A program made the translations under genes and the position numbers. A DNA stretch of 64,000 nucleotides from Oscillospiraceae bacterium. Lineage in GTDB: Bacteria; Bacillota; Clostridia; Oscillospirales; CAG-382. Under the pieces are notes generated by a model. The model ran no database searches and was not told the DNA's origin. It was given only the letters and a program-made list of their open reading frames with translations. How positions within the stretch are numbered: position 1 is the stretch's first letter; every line of letters starts with the position of its first letter. This document shows, piece by piece, positions 450 through 55,931 of this stretch. Location of the stretch: assembly GCA_015064945.1 (NCBI GenBank), contig SVRF01000002.1, positions 10,224 to 74,223 of the forward strand. Reading direction: 5' to 3'.

Positions 450-451
450 AA

Positions 452-535
452 TCCCCATAGCTCGCTTCGCTCGCAAGTGAAGAGGTAGAAGTGAAGAGTG
501 AAAAGGTAAGGAAATTTTTCGGCAAGCCGAAAAAA
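452..535 (+). repeat. Family-2 intergenic repeat, short divergent copy (degenerate head plus T/A-clamped hairpin)
   Basis: CCCCATAGCTCGCTTCGCTCGCAAG starts 3 nt after the proS TAA and resembles the CCCCATTGCTCGCTTTGCTCGCAACGGGG module at rc 926-893. It ends in the hairpin TTTTTCGGC-aa-GCCGAAAAA (515-535). Confidence 0.4.
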
Positions 536-556
536 GTATTTGTATTTGATAAAACC

Positions 557-796
557 TTGTAATTTATCGTAGGGCGGGGGTTTACTCCCACCGAAACGCA
601 ACAAATCATAAAAGCCTAAAATCTACGCATCAACGTAACAAATGGCACCGGTAGGGGGCGGCGCCTCGACGCCCCGAAACACAACATCAAAATATAACGC
701 AACGGCAGGAGATGCACATTTATCGCAAATCCTGCCGTTTCTTCTTTTTATTACGTAACGGCGGGAGTAGAACCCCCGCCCTACGATAAATTACAA
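557..796. repeat. Family-1 REP/BIME-like composite palindromic element, copy A (reverse orientation relative to copies B and E)
   Basis: Terminal inverted repeats of about 37 bp: TTGTAATTTATCGTAGGGCGGGGGTTTACTCCCACCG (557-593) and its reverse complement at 759-796. GTAG hairpins: type 1 at 569-593 and rc 784-759, type 2 at 651-675. Internal hairpin at 702-738. Alignable by eye to 33496-33709 and 55474-55687. Confidence 0.8.
702..738. terminator. Terminator-shaped hairpin carried inside family-1 copy A (A-rich / stem / T-rich)
   Basis: ACGGCAGGA...TCCTGCCGT forms a 9-bp stem. It is preceded by an A-rich tract and followed by TTCTTCTTTTT. It lies between convergent proS and the esterase gene. 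Confidence 0.4.
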
Positions 797-2348: not shown

Positions 2349-5300
2349 TTATAATTCTGCGGGGTCGCCGCAGTCGATGGCTTTGCCTAAAGCAAAGGAA
2401 TATATATATGCTTTTGTAACCTTTTTACCCGTAACTTTTTCAATGTATAAGCGGTACAGCCCCAACTGAACACCGTGGCGTGCCACAAGCAAAGACTCCT
2501 CACCGCTACGCACAGCATCGGACTTGTAATCCACAAGTGTAAAGCCACCCTCGGCGTTTTGGTAGAAGCAGTCGATAACGCCCTGTAACAGCGGCGCATC
2601 CTCGCCCTGCCCTGCAAACAAATGAGAGGGCACACGGGTAGTAAAGCGCTTTTCCCTGTAAAGCCGCGGAGATACCTTCATCTCTGTGTACAAATCGGAC
2701 TTAAAGAACAAAGCTATGGCATCCGTATCCATAAGCGCCCGTTGGTCGGCAGTAACAAAGCCTGCTTGAAGGAGCCTGTCCGCCTCGGCACTTACGTCAA
2801 CCTCTGCCTTCTTAAAGTCCGCAAACTGCATAAACAAATGGTTTGCCGTACCTATAAGTGCGGCGCCGGGTGCCGTAGTTGTACCGAACAGGGGCACTCT
2901 TTCCGTGACTAAGGCTTCCGCACGGGGAACAAGTGCGCCTTTTTCGTCACGCCGCAAAACAGAAGCGGAAAACTTTGCCGCCGCCCGCTGTGCCGCATCG
3001 GGCATAGAGGGTATAACAGGCAAGGGGAGCTCCTCTTCCTCTTTTGCCGTCATAATAAGCCGTGGGATAACTGCTTCCTCCGCCGTAGAAACATCTTTTA
3101 CCTCTGTATTATAAAACATTTCTTTGCCCATTGCAACAGCGGATATAAACAAATCTGCATAAGTGCCCTGTTTTTCTTGAAATATTCGTTCCTCCAAACT
3201 TTGGGAGAAGGATGCGGAGATATAAAGCTTCTCCTCCGCGCGGGTGAAGGCCACGTAAAGTATGCGCATCTCTTCCGCCATACAGCGCCTGTCCTCCGCC
3301 GCAAGCTCTGCACGCCTCAAGAGTGTGTTTATGCAAAGCGCCTCTTTTTGCCGCTTTAGCTTAAGGCTTATGCCGCTTTTGTAATCCACGGTTATGGGAG
3401 CGGCACGGTCAGCTCCCCTCATAGTACTGCCGCAATCCGCCACAAACACCACGGGAAACTCCAAGCCCTTGGAGCCGTGGACCGTCATAAGCTGTACCCC
3501 CTCTGCGGCGGAGCTTTTTTCTGCCGCAGGACTGCTGCCTACATCCGCAAGTCGGCTTAGATAGTCGGTAAACACGCTTACGCCCTTGTAACCCGTGTTT
3601 TCCATACCCATGGCAAGACGATAGAAGGCAAGCAGGTTTGCTTTGTAGCGTTGTTCCTTGCCCTTGGGTGCAAAGGCCATAATATTGCTTTGCTGATACA
3701 CCAGCCACAACAGCTTATGGACAGGCAAGAACAGCGCCTTTGTGCGGTAGGCGGCAATAGTCTGCAAAAAAGCTTTGCATTTTTCGCTAAGTTCAGTACT
3801 GCTGCCTTTTTTAATAAGGGGCTTTGTCTTTGGTTTTCGGTACGCCATAGGATAGGGTCTCAGCCTGAACACCCCACACTTTTGCCTTTCGCCCATTGCG
3901 GCGTGGCGCAGGTCATCAAAGAGGGATACACCGCCGCGGCGTATCTCCAACAGCTCTGCGGCTGTGAAGGCAAAAATAGGGCTTCTGAGCAACGCCGCCA
4001 AGGAGATGTCGTCCGTAGGGTTATCTATAACACGCAAAGCGGAGATAGCAAGAAGCACCTCCGGCTGTTTTAACAGCTCCTCCTTGCCTACTGTAAGGTT
4101 TGTTGGCACGCCGTAGGCGGAAAGTGCGGTTGCGTAACGGCGAAGCGCTGTAGCCTTACGGCACAGCACCGCTATGTCCGAGGGCTTTTTGCCCTCCTTT
4201 ATAAGCTTTATTATCTCACGGACGGTACCCAGAACCTCTGCCCTGTCATCCTCTGCATTTTCGTAAACCTTAAGGCTTACCTTTTCGCCGCCGTCATCGT
4301 TTTTACCGTGGACAAGCGCCTCAGCGCTGTAGTCGGTGCCTGCGGACTCCTTAGTGTAGACCTTGCCGAATAAATAATTACAAAAATCTATAATATTGCC
4401 GTTGCAACGGAAGTTTTCCTTTAACAGCACCTTAAGCCCTGCGCCCTCTCCGTCCTCGCTGTAGCTGTCGCAATAGGAAACGAACAGGTCGGGATAAGCG
4501 TTGCGGAAGCCGTAAATGCTTTGCTTTACATCCCCTACCATAAAGCGCTTGCCGCCGCCGATAAGGGCAAATATCGTATCCTGCAAGGGGCTTATGTCCT
4601 GATACTCGTCAACAAACACCTCTTTGTAAGCGGCGGAGAGCTCCTTGCAAAGGGAGGTTTTAACAAGCCCTTCCTTGGTTTTGGTAACAAGCAAATCTAA
4701 AAAGCATTGCTCGCCGTCGGCAAAATCTATAATCCCACGGCTGCGCTTTTCGGCAGAGTAAGCGTCATCCAGCTTAAGCATAAATCCACAGAGTGCTTGC
4801 AGAACCTGATGGGTCATTTCGTATTCCGCCCTCAGCTCCTCCTCAGTGCGCAGGTAGTCCTTAAGCTTTTTGCGGCGGTCGGTAATATCCGTGTAGATCT
4901 TAACGTATACCTCGCCGCAACCCTTGGGGCGCCTTAATGCGGGACTTGCGGCAACAGCGGCGCAAAACTGACTGTAGCCTGCTTCTGCCCCCTCTGTTAT
5001 GGACAGTATTGCCTCACGAACCTTCTCTGCAAACGCAAACTGCGCCTCGTCTTCTGCCAAATCGCAAAGAGTATCACACCACGCCTTAAGGGGACGGGTC
5101 TCTTCCTTTATACAGTCCTTAACCAATGCCCCGTGAGGAAGAGAGAAAAATTCCGTATAACTGAACGACTCGCTTTCCTTGCCGTAAGCTTTTACGGTCT
5201 CCTCTATCCAATCCCGATAGAAGGGGTAGGCACGCATCTTGCCGTAAAGCTGTACCGCGGCGGAAAGGAGGCCGTCGTCGCTTTTATGACTTGCAAAGTT

Positions 5301-33410: not shown

Positions 33411-33709
33411 GTAGGGGGCGTAATCCTCTGACGCCCCGAAGCGTGGCGCATATAAAAAAGCGCAACATCTTTATAAATAACGTTATAACCACAACGTAGG
33501 GCGGGGGTTTTACTCCCGCCGAAAGGATACAAAAAGAATAAACGGCAGGGATTGCGGTGATGCATCTCCTGCCGTGTTGTTTTATATCGTCTTTTTTCCT
33601 CGGGTCGTCGAAGGCGCCGACCCCTACCGCTGCAATTTGTTGCGTTTGTGCGTAGATTTTAGGTTTTGTTTTTCCGTTGCGTTTCGGCGGCAGTAAACCG
33701 CCGCCCTAC
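33411..33709. repeat. Family-1 REP/BIME-like composite element, locus B
   Basis: GTAG hairpins: type 2 at 33411-33437, type 1 at 33496-33520, type 2 at rc 33627-33602, type 1 at rc 33709-33685. Internal terminator-shaped hairpin at 33542-33575. Lies between convergent dus and the response regulator gene. Confidence 0.8.
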
Positions 33710-35758: not shown

Positions 35759-35895
35759 CCCCATCACTCACATTCGTTCGTGACGGGGACCCCGAAAGGT
35801 GCAAAGCACCATTTCCGTTCACTCGCGTCTTCGCGCCACTTCGTAGCACTCGCGGAAACTAATGTGTATTTTCTGCGGCGCCTGTCCGCAAAAAA
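35759..35895 (+). repeat. Family-2 intergenic repeat, reference copy
   Basis: The head hairpin CCCCATCAC (35759-35767) / GTGACGGGG (35780-35788) is followed by ACCCC and starts 4 nt after the ychF TAA. The body aligns to rc 1000-846. The tail hairpin is TTTTcTGCGG-cgcctgt-CCGCAAAAAA (35869-35895). Confidence 0.75.
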
Positions 35896-35940
35896 TACAG
35901 AATTTTAGTTTTGGTTACAATTACAATGAAATCAAACTTA

Positions 35941-37628: not shown

Positions 37629-37693
37629 CCCCATCACTCGCTACGTTCGTGACGGGGACCCCGAGAGAATAAAAGTACCATTTTTGTTCGCTT
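37629..37693 (+). repeat. Family-2 intergenic repeat, truncated copy (head plus part of the body)
   Basis: CCCCATCAC (37629-37637) / GTGACGGGG (37649-37657) plus ACCCC starts 3 nt after the TAA at 37623-37625. The following ~30 nt align with 35794-35825. Confidence 0.7.
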
Positions 37694-37755
37694 TGTTCGT
37701 AGCGCGGGGCCGACAACAAGCAAAGAGGCAGTCTTTAATGGCTGTCTTTTGCTTG

Positions 37756-37784: not shown

Positions 37785-37836
37785 GATTTATAGCGTGCAG
37801 AGCCAAAACAAAACGGCAAGCCGAAAGGAGCGCATT

Positions 37837-39012
37837 ATGAAAAGACTTATATATTTGCTTATCGCCATAAGCTTGATTATTTTCCTTGCCGCCTGCGGCA
37901 AAGAGGAAGCGCAAAACAGCAGCGAGCAAAGCGCCGAAGGCGTGACAAGTATCGAAAGCGTCGAAGAAACAAGTGAAGAAAGCATCGTAATTGAAGAAAC
38001 CGAAGAGGAAAGCCTCTCCTACGGGGGAACAAGCGATGAAAGCGAACCGCCACGTGAAGAAGAGCCGCCCTACGTACAAAGATACGGCTACAAGCCCCGC
38101 AGTCTTTACGATATGTTCACCTACGTAGATGATATGTGGATAAGCGCAGATGGGGAAACCTACGAGTTCGTCCGCATAAGCGAACAAGAAAAGACAGAGT
38201 TCAGTATTGACACCGTGTGGAAGCTGACCGCACCCGAAAGCTTCTTTACAGGCGGCAGGGACTATGCCCTTTGCAACCAAAGCAACGTTTTTGATTTATT
38301 TTATGCGCTGACTACCCTTGAAAGCACCAAGGTGCTTGTAAAAGAGCCCACGGAGGACGACATTGCCGAGTACGGCTTGGACGAGCCCTACCGCAGCTAC
38401 GGCTGGAATATATACGGCAGCAGAACCATCACCGTCCACATGACAGAGCCTGACGCAAACGGCGACTTTTACATATACGGCAAAGAAGGCGTGTGGGGCG
38501 GCGGTGCGCACTGCGCTTATTATGATGAAGAAACCTTCGGCATAGGCGCGCTTAACGCGGAGGATTTTCCGTATATATCGTATTCCGAGTTTGCTTTTGC
38601 CGATGACAGAGTGATAATAAACGGCGGCAGAGATTATATGGAAAAGATCGTCATAGAGCTTGACGGGGAAACCCACACCGTTGTTTTCCCCAAAAAAGAA
38701 CTAAGCTCTGACACCCCCACCACTTTTGACGGCAACGTGGTTGTATACCCCAACGACTATTATCTGTGTAATTTCATCACAAACATACGCATCCGCAGCC
38801 TGTATAGAGGAACCCCGCCCGAAAAGGCAGAGCTTAGCCTGACCGTAAACCACGACGGCACCGTAACAAAGCTGGACTTTTACCACTTGGATGGGGAATA
38901 CACCTATTGCAAGGTTAACGGCGAAAGCGATTACTGTGTGGATGACGAACGGTATAACGAGCTGGTTGAGGGAATACAAATCCTTGCCCGCGGCGAAATA
39001 ATACCCGACTGA
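37837..39012 (+). CDS. Lipoprotein, DUF4340-like (paralog 1)
   Basis: Lipobox MKRLIYLLIAISLIIFLAACG after AAAGGAG, then an acidic linker. WKLTAPE...YGLDEPYRSY resembles the DUF4340 pattern as I recall it. Confidence 0.6.
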   Translation: MKRLIYLLIAISLIIFLAACGKEEAQNSSEQSAEGVTSIESVEETSEESIVIEETEEESLSYGGTSDESEPPREEEPPYVQRYGYKPRSLYDMFTYVDDMWISADGETYEFVRISEQEKTEFSIDTVWKLTAPESFFTGGRDYALCNQSNVFDLFYALTTLESTKVLVKEPTEDDIAEYGLDEPYRSYGWNIYGSRTITVHMTEPDANGDFYIYGKEGVWGGGAHCAYYDEETFGIGALNAEDFPYISYSEFAFADDRVIINGGRDYMEKIVIELDGETHTVVFPKKELSSDTPTTFDGNVVVYPNDYYLCNFITNIRIRSLYRGTPPEKAELSLTVNHDGTVTKLDFYHLDGEYTYCKVNGESDYCVDDERYNELVEGIQILARGEIIPD

Positions 39013-39044
39013 GTTAAAGGAACACAAACCGAAAGGAGCTCGTT

Positions 39045-40628
39045 ATGAAAAAGCTTATATATTTACTTATTGCCATAAGCCTGCTTGCCACATTTACCGC
39101 CTGCGGCAAAGAGGAAGCGCAAAACAGCAGCGAGCAAAGCACGGGAACAAAAACAGAAAACGCAACAAACGAGGAAAGCTTGTACTCCGAGGAAACGGAT
39201 GAGGAGAGCGAAAGCGTAGAGGAAACGGACGAGGAAAGCTTGTACTCCGAGGAGACGAGCAAAGAAAGCGCCGTAGCGGAAGAGAAGCTTGTGTTTGGCA
39301 AGCAGACCCTGTATGACGCAGACGTGGTGCTTTCCGTTAAAATCACAAACACACACGGCGAATCAAAACTTAATAGGTCCGTTTATGAACAGTTCAACAC
39401 AAAAAAAGCTACCTACATAAAAAGCTTTTATGATTTTGTCTGCCGTCCCTTTGCTATCGGCACGGTGGAAAACCCCAAAGAGCTTAGCTACTATGGGCTT
39501 GACGGTGAAGGACAGGCAACGGTAAAAACAAGCGCAGTTCACAAAGACTGTTATTTGCGGATAGGCAACAGCGTTGAAGGCGCTTATTACTTTGCCCTTC
39601 TTGGAAAGAAGAGCGACAGCAGTTCGGAAATAACCTACGGTGACACGGTTTATATATTGGGCGATATTGTGAGCTGTGCCTTTGAGGAGCCTTTGTATTT
39701 TGCCACGGAATACTACGGTCAAGGCAACATGCGCGTTCATTTTTACTATACGGAGATAGACTGGTTTAAGATTACGACCGAGGACGAAAGCTATGAGTTT
39801 TACCCCATAAGCGACAGCGAAAAGGGCGAGTTTGGCGTTAACAGCAAATGGAAGCTTACCGCGCCCGAAAGACTTTTCAGAGACGGCAAAAGCTATGAAA
39901 ACGCAAATGACGCCAATGTGTGTCAGATGCTTTACTCCATCTGCAACCTTAGGTGCGACAATATTGTGGTGAAGGAGCCTAAAGACGAGGATATTGCCCG
40001 CTACGGGCTGGACAAGCCTTACCGTAGCTACTCCTACCGAACTATGGGCGATATCCACACCGTGTATATGACCAAGCCCGACGAAGAAGGCAAATATTAC
40101 GTTTACGCCAAGGAGGATTACAGTGAAGGCTGTTGCTACGGCACCGAAGTGTCCTCCATAGGCGTTATGGAAAAGCCCTTTGAGTTTATGGAATACACGG
40201 ACTACAACCTTGTGATTGATACCCTGTTTTTAAAGCCGCTTTCTGAGGTAAAAAGCATTATGATAAACTCGGAGGACGGAGAACACACCATAGACATAAG
40301 CGATATGACTGACAGCGGTTATCCCATTGCCACCTTAGACGGCGAAACGCCTGATTTATTATCCTACAACTTGCTATCATACTATGGCGCTTTGGGTATG
40401 ATAAATATCGAATTCCAATACAGAGAGATGCCGCCCGAATCAGGTGATATGAGGATTGTGCTGGAGTGCCAGGACGAAACGCTCTCTTACACCTTTTACG
40501 TTTTGAACAGCGAAAAAGTACATTGCAAAGTAAACGGCGATGAGGATTATCTTATATCCCGTGACGCTTACGATAGGGTTGTAAAAAGCTACAAGTTTTT
40601 GCTGGCAAACGAGCGAATGCCCGAATAG
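39045..40628 (+). CDS. Lipoprotein, DUF4340-like (paralog 2, longer)
   Basis: Lipobox MKKLIYLLIAISLLATFTACG, then an acidic repeat linker. WKLTAPE...YGLDKPYRSY matches paralog 1. Confidence 0.6.
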   Translation: MKKLIYLLIAISLLATFTACGKEEAQNSSEQSTGTKTENATNEESLYSEETDEESESVEETDEESLYSEETSKESAVAEEKLVFGKQTLYDADVVLSVKITNTHGESKLNRSVYEQFNTKKATYIKSFYDFVCRPFAIGTVENPKELSYYGLDGEGQATVKTSAVHKDCYLRIGNSVEGAYYFALLGKKSDSSSEITYGDTVYILGDIVSCAFEEPLYFATEYYGQGNMRVHFYYTEIDWFKITTEDESYEFYPISDSEKGEFGVNSKWKLTAPERLFRDGKSYENANDANVCQMLYSICNLRCDNIVVKEPKDEDIARYGLDKPYRSYSYRTMGDIHTVYMTKPDEEGKYYVYAKEDYSEGCCYGTEVSSIGVMEKPFEFMEYTDYNLVIDTLFLKPLSEVKSIMINSEDGEHTIDISDMTDSGYPIATLDGETPDLLSYNLLSYYGALGMINIEFQYREMPPESGDMRIVLECQDETLSYTFYVLNSEKVHCKVNGDEDYLISRDAYDRVVKSYKFLLANERMPE

Positions 40629-55202: not shown

Positions 55203-55228
55203 AACCATCGCATTTACCGCAGGTAAAT

Positions 55229-55289
55229 ATATCGCGCCCACGGGCATATCGCGCCGCAGGTATATCGCGCGGCGAAGCCGCATATCGCC
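55229..55289. repeat. Four degenerate tandem repeats with the core ATATCGCGC
   Basis: Cores at 55229, 55246, 55262 and 55282, giving spacings of 17, 16 and 20 nt. Confidence 0.6.
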
Positions 55290-55300
55290 AACAACCTGCC

Positions 55301-55897
55301 CAAAGATAAAAGGCGGCAGTCACGCATAAGCGTATTATTTACAACGTAGGGCAAACCTCAACATTTCATGTTAACGGCTCAAGATCTACGGTAGGGGTCG
55401 GCGCCCTCGACGACCCGTAACGCAACGCAAAGATAAAAGGCAACTGTTCACGCATAAACGTAAAAAACATAACGTAGGGCGGCGGTTTACTGCCGCCGTT
55501 ACCTTACAACAAGAACAAACGACAGGATTTGTGTATGCCACATCTCCTGCCGTTTTGTTTTATATTGCCGTTTTACCTCGGGTCGTCGAAGGCGCCGACC
55601 CCTACCGGTGCTATTTGTTGCGTTTTTGCGTAGAAACAGGGTTTTGTGTTATTGTCACGCTTCGGCGGGAGTAAACCCCCGCCCTACGACAATGCGCAAG
55701 GTTTTATGTAAAACCTTAAGGTCTGCGGTAGGGGTCGGCGCCCTCGACGACCCGAAGCGTATCATAAATACAAACCATAACATTTTTATAAATAAACATT
55801 GCAATTACAACGTAGGGCGGCGGTTTACTGCCGCCGTTACCTTACAACAAGAACAAACGACAGGATTTGTGACGTCACATCTCCTGCCGTTTTGTTT
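55301..55897. repeat. Family-1 REP/BIME-like elements, locus E (one full unit plus partial tandem units)
   Basis: GTAG hairpins: truncated at 55346; type 2 at 55391-55416, rc 55605-55579 and 55728-55753; type 1 at 55474-55498, rc 55687-55663 and 55812-55836. Internal hairpins at 55519-55553 and 55857-55890. Direct repeats of CAAAGATAAAAGGC...ACGCATAA at 55301 and 55428. Confidence 0.8.
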
Positions 55898-55931
55898 TTC
55901 ATTATTATAGGCATCGGCGTTAGGCTTTACC

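Follow-up and report, generated by a model that had tools for sequence, protein, structure and literature searches.

Repetitive extragenic palindromic (REP) elements and the tyrosine transposases associated with them (RAYTs) have been studied almost entirely in Proteobacteria, with Cyanobacteria and Bacteroidetes included in surveys. REPs are imperfect palindromes of 20-40 nt with a conserved GT[AG]G at the 5' foot of the hairpin; they lie outside genes, mostly 3' of them, and a genome has tens to hundreds of dispersed copies, while a RAYT binds and cleaves single-stranded REP DNA in a sequence-specific way. In the IS200/IS605 family, the TnpA enzymes recognise hairpins in single-stranded DNA. 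GTAG-tagged REPs, as well as the inverted REP dimers named REPINs, the bacterial interspersed mosaic elements (BIMEs) and the REPtrons in which a cognate transposase gene adjoins its REPs, are well described (PMC3733652, PMC3116915, PMC6006769). Moreover, in-frame REP insertions between HuH and Y were reported within tnpA-REP itself in TnpA-REP subclass 2.4 (Bertels group 4; Quentin et al. 2018, PMC6006769). As for Clostridia, IS200-type subclass 1.1 is well represented there (PMC6006769) and group 1 RAYTs occur (Bertels et al., PMC5581495); REP elements of Firmicutes or Clostridia are not reported in these four key papers. The stretch of DNA considered here, 64,000 nucleotides (nt) from an Oscillospiraceae bacterium (contig SVRF01000002.1; hereafter the window), contains a family of short GTAG-prefixed GC hairpins in three intergenic loci named A, B and E. 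These loci are probably BIME-like arrays of two REP classes in a RAYT system, with a TnpA-REP-like Y1 HUH enzyme, of gut Clostridia of the Oscillospirales type; the probability is put at about 0.78. They would then be a REP-RAYT system of proteobacterial style in Oscillospirales-type Firmicutes. A preliminary description of the sequence had proposed REP/BIME (REPIN) elements with a RAYT, and this proposal gains support from RAYT-family genes of sister genomes that are flanked by the same hairpins and also contain them.

Two hairpin classes and their shared unit

The type-1 REP (T1) consists of GTAG followed by GGCGG[G/C]GG, a TTTA loop and CT[C/G]CCGCC. A search of the window with the pattern GTAGGGCGGSGGTTTACTSCCGCC gave five strict matches (569+, 33709-, 55474+, 55687- and 55812+), to which two loop variants are added (784- with TTCTA and 33496+ with TTTTA), and a covariance model built from the T1 copies and run over the whole window with filters off retrieved exactly seven T1 at 50-52 bits, the next candidate scoring 14 bits. 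In the same way, the type-2 REP (T2), made of GTAG followed by GGG[T/G]CG, a loop and CG[A/C]CCC, was found six times with the pattern GTAGGGGKCG..CGMCCC (651+, 33411+, 33627-, 55391+, 55605- and 55728+). Neither pattern had a match in 100 shuffles of the window sequence. All 13 REPs, a density of 13 per 64 kb, are confined to three intergenic regions, each flanked by convergent genes. Copy A is the reverse complement of B and E (repeat finder: I1, 99 nt, 84%; I2, 62 nt, 84%; I3, 63 nt, 81%), and a unit of about 220 nt is similar from end to end in a four-way alignment.

These results bear out every coordinate of the preliminary description, which had given three intergenic loci sharing a unit of about 220 bp with copy A inverted, and had counted seven T1 and six T2, in agreement with the patterns and the covariance model. 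The position between convergent genes holds for all three loci, and the stem kept around an unrelated loop at 33411 was seen as well. The features of the loci are given below; L and P numbers designate stretches and proteins from other genomes, and module X is an extension of unit A.

Locus A, between the 3' end of proS and an S9/alpha-beta hydrolase gene
450 to 556, minus strand: module X, with hairpin TTTTTCGGCAAGCCGAAAAA at 515-534 and a TTCACT-rich stretch; terminator-like on both strands
569 to 592, plus strand: T1 REP, 8-bp GC stem with a G.T pair and one mismatch (CCCACC); covariance model 50.2 bits
651 to 675, plus strand: T2 REP, G:C variant (T2b); pattern match
700 to 740, minus strand: terminator-like hairpin module of unit A; fold of 695-760 on the minus strand -22.8 kcal/mol, z -4.4
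760 to 784, minus strand: T1 REP, loop TTCTA; 49.9 bits
Locus B, between dus and an OmpR-type response regulator gene
33411 to 33437, plus strand: T2 REP, G:C stem, unrelated loop; pattern match
33496 to 33520, plus strand: T1 REP, loop TTTTA; 51.1 bits
33535 to 33583, plus strand: bidirectional terminator-like hairpin module; -24.3 kcal/mol, z -5.0
33602 to 33627, minus strand: T2 REP, T:A stem, loop CCTTC; same sequence as the reverse copy inside the RAYT P0140 gene
33686 to 33709, minus strand: T1 REP, C:G variant; pattern and covariance model
Locus E, between a radical SAM/SPASM gene and a Na/Pi cotransporter-PhoU gene
55346 to 55352, plus strand: truncated T1 relic GTAGGGC, a rearrangement breakpoint; the orthologous position holds an intact T1 in L071 and GTAGGAC in L147
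55391 to 55416, plus strand: T2 REP, T:A stem, loop CCCTC; same sequence as the forward copy inside the RAYT P0140 gene
55474 to 55497, plus strand: T1 REP, C:G variant; pattern and covariance model
55512 to 55561, plus strand: bidirectional terminator-like module; plus strand -19.8 kcal/mol, z -4.5; minus strand -23.8 kcal/mol, z -5.8
55580 to 55605, minus strand: T2 REP; pattern match
55664 to 55687, minus strand: T1 REP, G:C variant; 51.7 bits
55728 to 55753, plus strand: T2 REP, second copy of a 338-nt direct duplication; repeat finder and pattern
55812 to 55835, plus strand: T1 REP, second copy of the 338-nt direct duplication; repeat finder and pattern
55849 to 55899, plus strand: bidirectional terminator-like module; -20.9 kcal/mol, z -5.2; the Na/Pi cotransporter gene has its stop codon 33 nt away

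In the orientation of B and E, the unit reads T1 forward, about 20 nt, a hairpin of 45-50 nt, about 20 nt, T2 reverse, about 57 nt and T1 reverse. The recurring unit is an inverted T1 pair, a REPIN with a long spacer, that encloses a terminator-like hairpin and one T2. Inverted pairs of either class, from T1 forward to T1 reverse and from T2 forward to T2 reverse, are spaced by 214-216 nt in the window. The central hairpin is bordered 5' by an A-rich tract and 3' by TTTTGTTTT and folds on both strands with -20 to -24 kcal/mol and z-scores of -4.4 to -5.8; because of this strong predicted fold on both strands, together with the A-tract and the T-tract, it looks like a bidirectional intrinsic terminator. 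A simple consensus terminator scan did not call the module, whose loop and upper stem lie beyond the limits of the scan.

The three loci elaborate this unit in distinct ways. Both B and E have an additional T2 forward upstream of the unit, and E, an array of seven REPs, is a 338-nt direct duplication (T2 forward-T1 forward-terminator, T2 reverse-T1 reverse, T2 forward-T1 forward-terminator) that starts with the truncated T1 at 55346. Unit A runs on leftward through module X to the stop codon of proS. Module X is, by eye, about 85% like positions 4985-5100 of L125, the stretch that follows the T1 reverse copy of the array found there, and the TTCTA loop variant of T1 at 784- recurs in both L038 and L125. 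At the level of the fold, the 8-bp stem of T1 contains an invariant G.T (G.U) pair on the GTAG strand, and the opposite strand has an A.C mismatch and folds more weakly (-12.9 as against -16.4 kcal/mol). The T2 fold comprises a 6-bp stem, a 1x1 internal loop, 2 bp and a tetraloop.

RAYT-like genes that carry the same hairpins

A candidate enzyme was found in L015, a stretch of a metagenome-assembled genome (MAG) of Faecousia, where a RAYT-like open reading frame (ORF) of 170 amino acids (aa) has one T1 upstream and two T1 immediately past its stop codon; at least four further copies around it are inverted loop variants. Another T1 lies in frame within the ORF, GTA GGG CGG GGG TTT ACT CCC GCC being read as VGRGFTPA. 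The ORF matched the NCBIfam model REP_Tyr_transpos (NF047646) with E 1.3e-14 and 54 bits, and its best PDB match was 4ER8, the E. coli REP-associated tyrosine transposase; a Pfam search gave nothing at E <= 0.01. The T1-type subfamily to which it belongs counts at least 1,392 homologs, some of them named transposase [Oscillospiraceae] or 'REP element-mobilizing transposase RayT' (JGI). In the consensus of this subfamily, the HUH motif MPTHIHAII is preceded by LSxVGRGLAPA and immediately followed by AGASPRPT. Read in frame, GTAGGGCGGGGGCTTGCCCCCGCC gives the first of these peptides and its reverse complement, which ends in CCCTAC, gives the second, as seen in the DNA of L126. In addition, a DHIH-type RAYT pattern was observed about 5 kb from a T1 copy in an Acutalibacteraceae MAG (L020, 5540-5557).

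In parallel, a T2-type paralog was found in the two closest relatives of the window, L125 (MAG JAZMNZ01) and L038 (MAG JAZSIW01), which are about 92-95% identical to it. The L038 gene has in-frame T2 hairpins, forward (VGVGAHDDP) and reverse (DGSSRAPTPT), that flank MPDHIHIII, and directly 3' of it follow T2 forward, T1 forward, terminator and T2 reverse, which are the modules of the window unit without the final T1 reverse. The L125 protein P0121 (gene 4001-4531, 176 aa) is intact, 96% identical to the L038 paralog and encoded with the same two hairpins, one on each side of the HUH motif; the array 3' of it consists of T2 forward, T2 forward, T1 forward, terminator, T2 reverse, T1 reverse and module X. 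Judged by sequence, the RAYT gene with its adjoining array is in both genomes a REPtron arrangement. The in-gene hairpins of a further protein, P0140, are identical to the window T2 forward with loop CCCTC and T2 reverse with loop CCTTC. The Y1 (HUH) gene flanked by these hairpins that the preliminary description had proposed to look for is thus present in L015, with T1, and in L125 and L038, with T2 and T1. In L038 itself, a TAA stop at 522-524 falls within the Y motif (YIY*NP), where the JAZMNZ01 ortholog and metagenome contigs have GAA.

The T2-type subfamily counts at least 1,107 homologs, which reach 57-66 bits on REP_Tyr_transpos (to E 2e-18; 66 bits for P0121) and 18-21 bits on Pfam Y1_Tnp, and a precomputed match to PF01797 exists for a few RAYT homologs. 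A profile of both subfamilies retrieved the TnpA-REP structure 4er8_A at E 9e-9, as against E 0.85 for IS200-type TnpA. The AlphaFold (AF2) model of P0121 has a pLDDT of 81 with low confidence exactly at the REP-encoded DGSSRAP loop, and its top Foldseek hit was 4er8_A (E 2e-7, TMq 0.55), followed by IS200, IS608 and ISDra2 transposases. The proteins share the HUH motif MP[DTN]HIH, a catalytic tyrosine in YI[YDE][EGN]NP (Y---NP) and an IS200-like fold. As their family matches are clear but sub-threshold, they form a divergent RAYT subfamily. One of them, P0095, occupies a conserved chromosomal position in 23 contigs.

Because in-frame REPs were already reported for subclass 2.4 (PMC6006769), the in-gene hairpins are not new in kind. 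The preliminary description had said that such elements were characterised mainly in Proteobacteria, with the qualification to be added that RAYT-REP systems with REPs inside the transposase gene were already known outside this phylum (PMC6006769).

Conservation was considered for both hairpin classes. GTAG stands directly at the stem in 15/15 aligned T1 and 26/26 aligned T2, and stem positions are paired in 99.8% of cases for T1 (138 distinct copies) and 98.9% for T2. Changes across the 138 distinct T1 copies amount to three from G:C to C:G and two from G:C to A:U, the G.U pair being kept in 138/138; T1 covariation is real but sparse. The variable T2 pair, in a search whose pattern permitted mismatches, was U:A in 15 and G:C in 8 of 23 distinct copies and mismatched in none. 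The compensatory changes from G:C to C:G in T1 and from T:A to G:C in T2 are therefore as first described, and the accompanying view that structure rather than sequence is conserved stands for T2, with its clean covariation, and only weakly for T1, with its nearly invariant stem. Within genes, the RAYT P0129 encodes the G:C variant of T2 in frame (VGGGALDAP for VGVGALDDP, two residues for one base pair), both in-gene hairpins of the L114 RAYT have another stem (GGGGAGGGG/CCCCTCCCC), the first in-gene hairpin is missing in the homologs P0004, P0044, P0050, P0111 and P0113, and two to three tandem in-frame copies occur in P0123, P0208, P0240, P0129 and P0073. For these reasons, selection appears to act on the DNA hairpin and not on the encoded peptide.

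A bolder proposal, tentative and rather doubtful at present, is that, within this large RAYT family of Clostridia, the transposase ORF necessarily contains its own substrate: two cognate REPs, inverted relative to each other, would lie in frame at two fixed positions flanking the HUH codons and would co-vary with the extragenic REPs of the same genome. The co-variation would consist in T1-type genes going with T1 REPs and T2-type genes with T2, and in the change from V/D to G/A following that from T:A to G:C. If this were true, the in-gene pair could be a master copy or a cis-regulatory site (self-binding, self-limitation, seeding of new REPINs), and the cognate REP of a RAYT could be read directly from its protein sequence.

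As regards the organism of the window, four faecal metagenomes hold the window strain at 7-14x, and the same four contain contigs of the L038-type RAYT, 93-96% identical to L038, at 8.5-17x. Depth and divergence of these contigs match those of the neighbouring single-copy gene. An intact RAYT ortholog is thus probable in the window's own population, because the RAYT contigs have the matching depth and the L038 stop codon is read as GAA. In these data, depth rises to 350-1900x in the hairpin bins and to 50-130x in the lineage-specific bins of terminator and linker; hundreds of metagenome contigs end in or join at hairpins, and assemblies typically break inside the array.

Occurrence and rearrangement in related genomes

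The T1 pattern, scanned over representative genomes, was found in at least 118 stretches. Among the matches listed, the MAGs are labelled Faecousia, Acutalibacteraceae, Oscillospiraceae, Candidatus Flemingiibacterium, Avispirillum, 'Eubacteriales' and 'Clostridia' and come mostly from ruminant and other animal gut samples. The search of relatives suggested by the preliminary description thus gave many MAG species, and its Rfam check returned no described non-coding RNA family for the repeats, either at the gathering threshold or at E <= 1. In the first 100 of the at least 118 loci, the T1 covariance model counted 196 copies, and roughly half of these 100 loci (hit table read by eye) have an oppositely oriented T1 partner 44-51 nt away; such close inverted T1 pairs in other MAGs are the REPIN arrangement. 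In the pairs of L001 and L054, the forward loop is TTTACT and the reverse loop CTTGCT or a near variant, and the T1 copies sampled in L001, L005, L032 and L054 are all intergenic. Among the matches listed (118 loci), T2 was present in eight and the terminator module in two, and loci with both belong to MAG JAZSIW01. Since its stretch L071 is syntenic with locus E of the window, with a flank about 95% identical by eye, JAZSIW01 is a close relative of the window.

A further class of GTAG hairpin (GTAGGGGCGACCATTGGTC...) adjoins the T1 REPIN of L001 at 2703-2720. Because of this class, T1-bearing genomes appear to hold more REP classes than the two of the window. The hairpins were also observed in predicted viral contigs of IMG/VR (L153/L154; L159, L162, L164), with five T1 in one of 17 kb and five T2 of the 25-nt, short-loop form in one of 68 kb; the RAYT-like HUH pattern was not found in those contigs. 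They could be prophage or host DNA, or REPs could be invading phages.

Orthologous sites differ in the size of their arrays. Between the radical SAM and Na/Pi cotransporter genes, L147 has 374 nt with one T2-T1-terminator unit, the window has 730 nt, and L071 has about 2.2 kb, where REP modules enclose two cargo genes and one T2 hairpin is cut mid-way at the junction. The breakpoints between these three forms lie inside hairpins. The L071 cassette (927-2383) encodes a 363-aa zinc-ribbon/transmembrane protein and a 123-aa XRE-type helix-turn-helix regulator. In the same way, the RAYT gene and metC are separated by 573 nt in L125 but by 397 nt in L038. Where contigs encode identical radical SAM or response-regulator proteins, their intergenic regions do not differ or the contigs break off within the repeats, and a metagenome scan with the Dus protein returned only relatives of at most 48% identity, uninformative on filled and empty sites. 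The comparison of filled and empty sites proposed at the outset was therefore answered in part: array sizes do differ among L147, the window and L071, and a clean empty site was not found.

Several other features of the window are worth recording. A second, unrelated intergenic repeat family, which contains CCCCATCACTC..CGTTCGTGACGGGGACCCCGA.. and a TTTTTTGCGGACAGGTGCCGCAAAAAA hairpin, is present at 812-999, 35773-35902 and 37629-37705; it lies directly after stop codons at three places and is once reversed, adjoining REP unit A. Just 3' of the radical SAM gene, positions 55225-55300 hold four copies of (T)ATATCGC(G/C) spaced by about 17-20 nt, which are kept in L071, L147 being without one of them; the nearest Rfam signal by these motifs was a weak Gut-1 match (19 bits, E 0.48). 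Finally, two neighbouring paralogous genes have near-identical 5' ends (37817-37932 and 39025-39140), which code for lipoprotein-like signal peptides, and this pair (37955-39270) contains acidic internal repeats of 60 nt.

Alternative readings and comparison with known systems

By analogy with E. coli TnpA-REP and IS200/IS605, and because of the similarity to 4ER8, the RAYT would recognise GTAG and the hairpin in single-stranded DNA, on the lagging-strand template, and would cut and rejoin at hairpins. This would yield dispersal, tandem growth, rearrangement and deletions with breakpoints in hairpins. The arrays would persist between convergent genes since an insertion at such a place does no harm, and transcripts arriving from either side may stop at the terminator module, so that arrays would be tolerated or even useful as bidirectional terminators.

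A number of observations weigh against this REP-RAYT interpretation. As the preliminary description had noted, the window holds no RAYT gene; a degenerate HUH pattern had no match in its 64 kb with up to two mismatches, and the presence of a RAYT in the same genome is deduced only from metagenome depth. The RAYT-like proteins score below curated cut-offs (54-66 against 80 bits for NCBIfam; 18-21 against 23 for Pfam PF01797), and many genes of the family, such as those of P0095 and P0140, have no room for flanking REPs. The T1 stem is almost invariant across genera, which is unusual as REPs are normally lineage-specific. No clean filled-versus-empty site was seen among the orthologous sites compared, and locus B is the same in all strains that share an identical response regulator. 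Lastly, the hairpin depth of 50-200x the single-copy depth is a community-wide figure and not a per-genome copy number.

Among the other explanations, the one that survives best, though improbable, is that the unit is first of all a host-selected bidirectional terminator or mRNA-stabilising cassette, copied by recombination between convergent gene pairs, the GTAG hairpins being accessory RNA structures with no transposase involved. The A-tract and T-tract hairpin, strong on both strands (z -4.4 to -5.8), would suit such a cassette, as would the convergent genes at all three loci, the status of the central hairpin as sole terminator-like structure at locus B and the invariant G.T pair that favours folding of the GTAG strand. 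Against it, a single array contains T1 and T2 copies of either orientation, the hairpins stand without the terminator module in 116/118 other loci (among the matches listed) and are found in frame within RAYT genes as well as beside them, and the simple terminator scan passed over the module. A cassette of this kind fits a secondary, domesticated role and leaves the origin of the repeats unexplained.

Less probable still is an undescribed family of structured non-coding RNA of which the hairpins would be parts. The compensatory changes and the G.U pair are what an RNA structure would show, but Rfam gave no match even at E <= 1, a promoter scan returned one weak match at E, none at B and one at A, not above shuffled sequence, and copies are found in both orientations, in tandem and within coding sequence. 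Slightly behind it comes the idea that the units are decayed fragments of RAYT genes, namely the segment between the two in-gene hairpins, whose 209 nt from T2 forward to T2 reverse in L125 are close to the extragenic 214-216 nt; when aligned, in-gene and extragenic copies are similar in the hairpins alone and the HUH-coding spacer has left no trace, and this derivation was rejected. Equally slight is the case for a miniature inverted-repeat transposable element of a conventional DDE insertion sequence: inverted T1 ends of 26-41 nt do bound the unit like terminal inverted repeats and reach past the hairpin in copy A (I12: 41 nt, 88%), but the units of the three window loci lack a direct target-site duplication beside them, these ends are GTAG-tagged palindromes also seen single, in tandem and inside RAYT genes, and the sole associated enzyme found is a Y1 HUH protein.

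Taken as a REP-RAYT system, the clostridial arrays resemble E. coli REP/BIME and its TnpA-REP (RayT, yafM; 4ER8) in the GTAG at the foot of an imperfect GC-rich hairpin, in the two REP classes per array (compare Y and Z) with alternating orientations, and in the extragenic position downstream of genes. As in the E. coli REPtron, a cognate Y1 HUH gene adjoins the same REPs, with 4ER8 as best structural and sequence match. However, the host lineage is clostridial, of Gram-positive type and from the gut; the protein is about 23% identical to 4ER8, falls below curated family cut-offs and has FQ in place of the WQ motif. Moreover, the clostridial system has REPs inside the ORF, a dedicated terminator-like module in its arrays and a REP sequence common to several genera.

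The likeness to subclass 2.4 (PMC6006769) lies in the motifs and in the place of the in-gene REPs. In both, in-gene REPs keep the frame and are located between the HuH strand and the next helix; in the clostridial genes, the reverse REP (AGASPRPT or DGSSRAPTPT) comes directly after the HUH strand and the forward one before HUH. Both have the HuH motif xH[IFV]H, the Y motif YIxxNP and short proteins without C-terminal domain, and the subclass 2.4 motifs NH[IFV]H, WQ and YIxNNP are similar in the clostridial family except for FQ instead of WQ. Subclass 2.4 was described for Cyanobacteria, Bacteroidetes and 'various phyla' (PMC6006769), whereas the clostridial genes add a second in-gene REP upstream of HuH, giving an inverted pair at fixed homologous positions in two paralogous subfamilies.

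With Pseudomonas REPINs and group 2/3 RAYTs (Bertels & Rainey 2011, PMC3116915), the clostridial elements share the inverted REP dimer as replicating unit (T1 pairs 44-51 nt apart) and a gene in conserved chromosomal context, as for P0095. In the lineage of the window, on the contrary, the two REPs of the dimer are separated by a spacer of about 165 nt in which further modules lie. Pseudomonas REPINs are vertically inherited and lineage-specific, whereas the clostridial REP sequence is shared across genera, which suggests horizontal spread or strong constraint. Finally, IS200/IS605 TnpA and its miniature derivatives have the HUH-Y1 fold in common with the clostridial proteins (2vjv, 2xm3 and 2ec2 at E 1e-5 to 1e-4), but the clostridial profile is far nearer to TnpA-REP (E 9e-9 against 0.85), with Y---NP (class 2) and not Y---Q, and the system has a GTAG tag and no tnpB.

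The REP-RAYT design, with its GTAG hairpin, inverted pairs, BIME-like arrays and cognate Y1 enzyme, would thus probably extend to abundant uncultured gut Oscillospirales, where the repeats break metagenome assemblies, generate structural variation between close strains and probably supply terminators. More than 1,000 RAYT homologs per subfamily with the REP written into the protein offer a natural data set for REP-RAYT co-evolution. Compared with the described systems, what appears to be new is the clade of the host, an inverted pair set at fixed places around HUH in each of two paralogous subfamilies that have separate REP classes, the composite unit with a terminator and the sharing of one REP sequence across genera.

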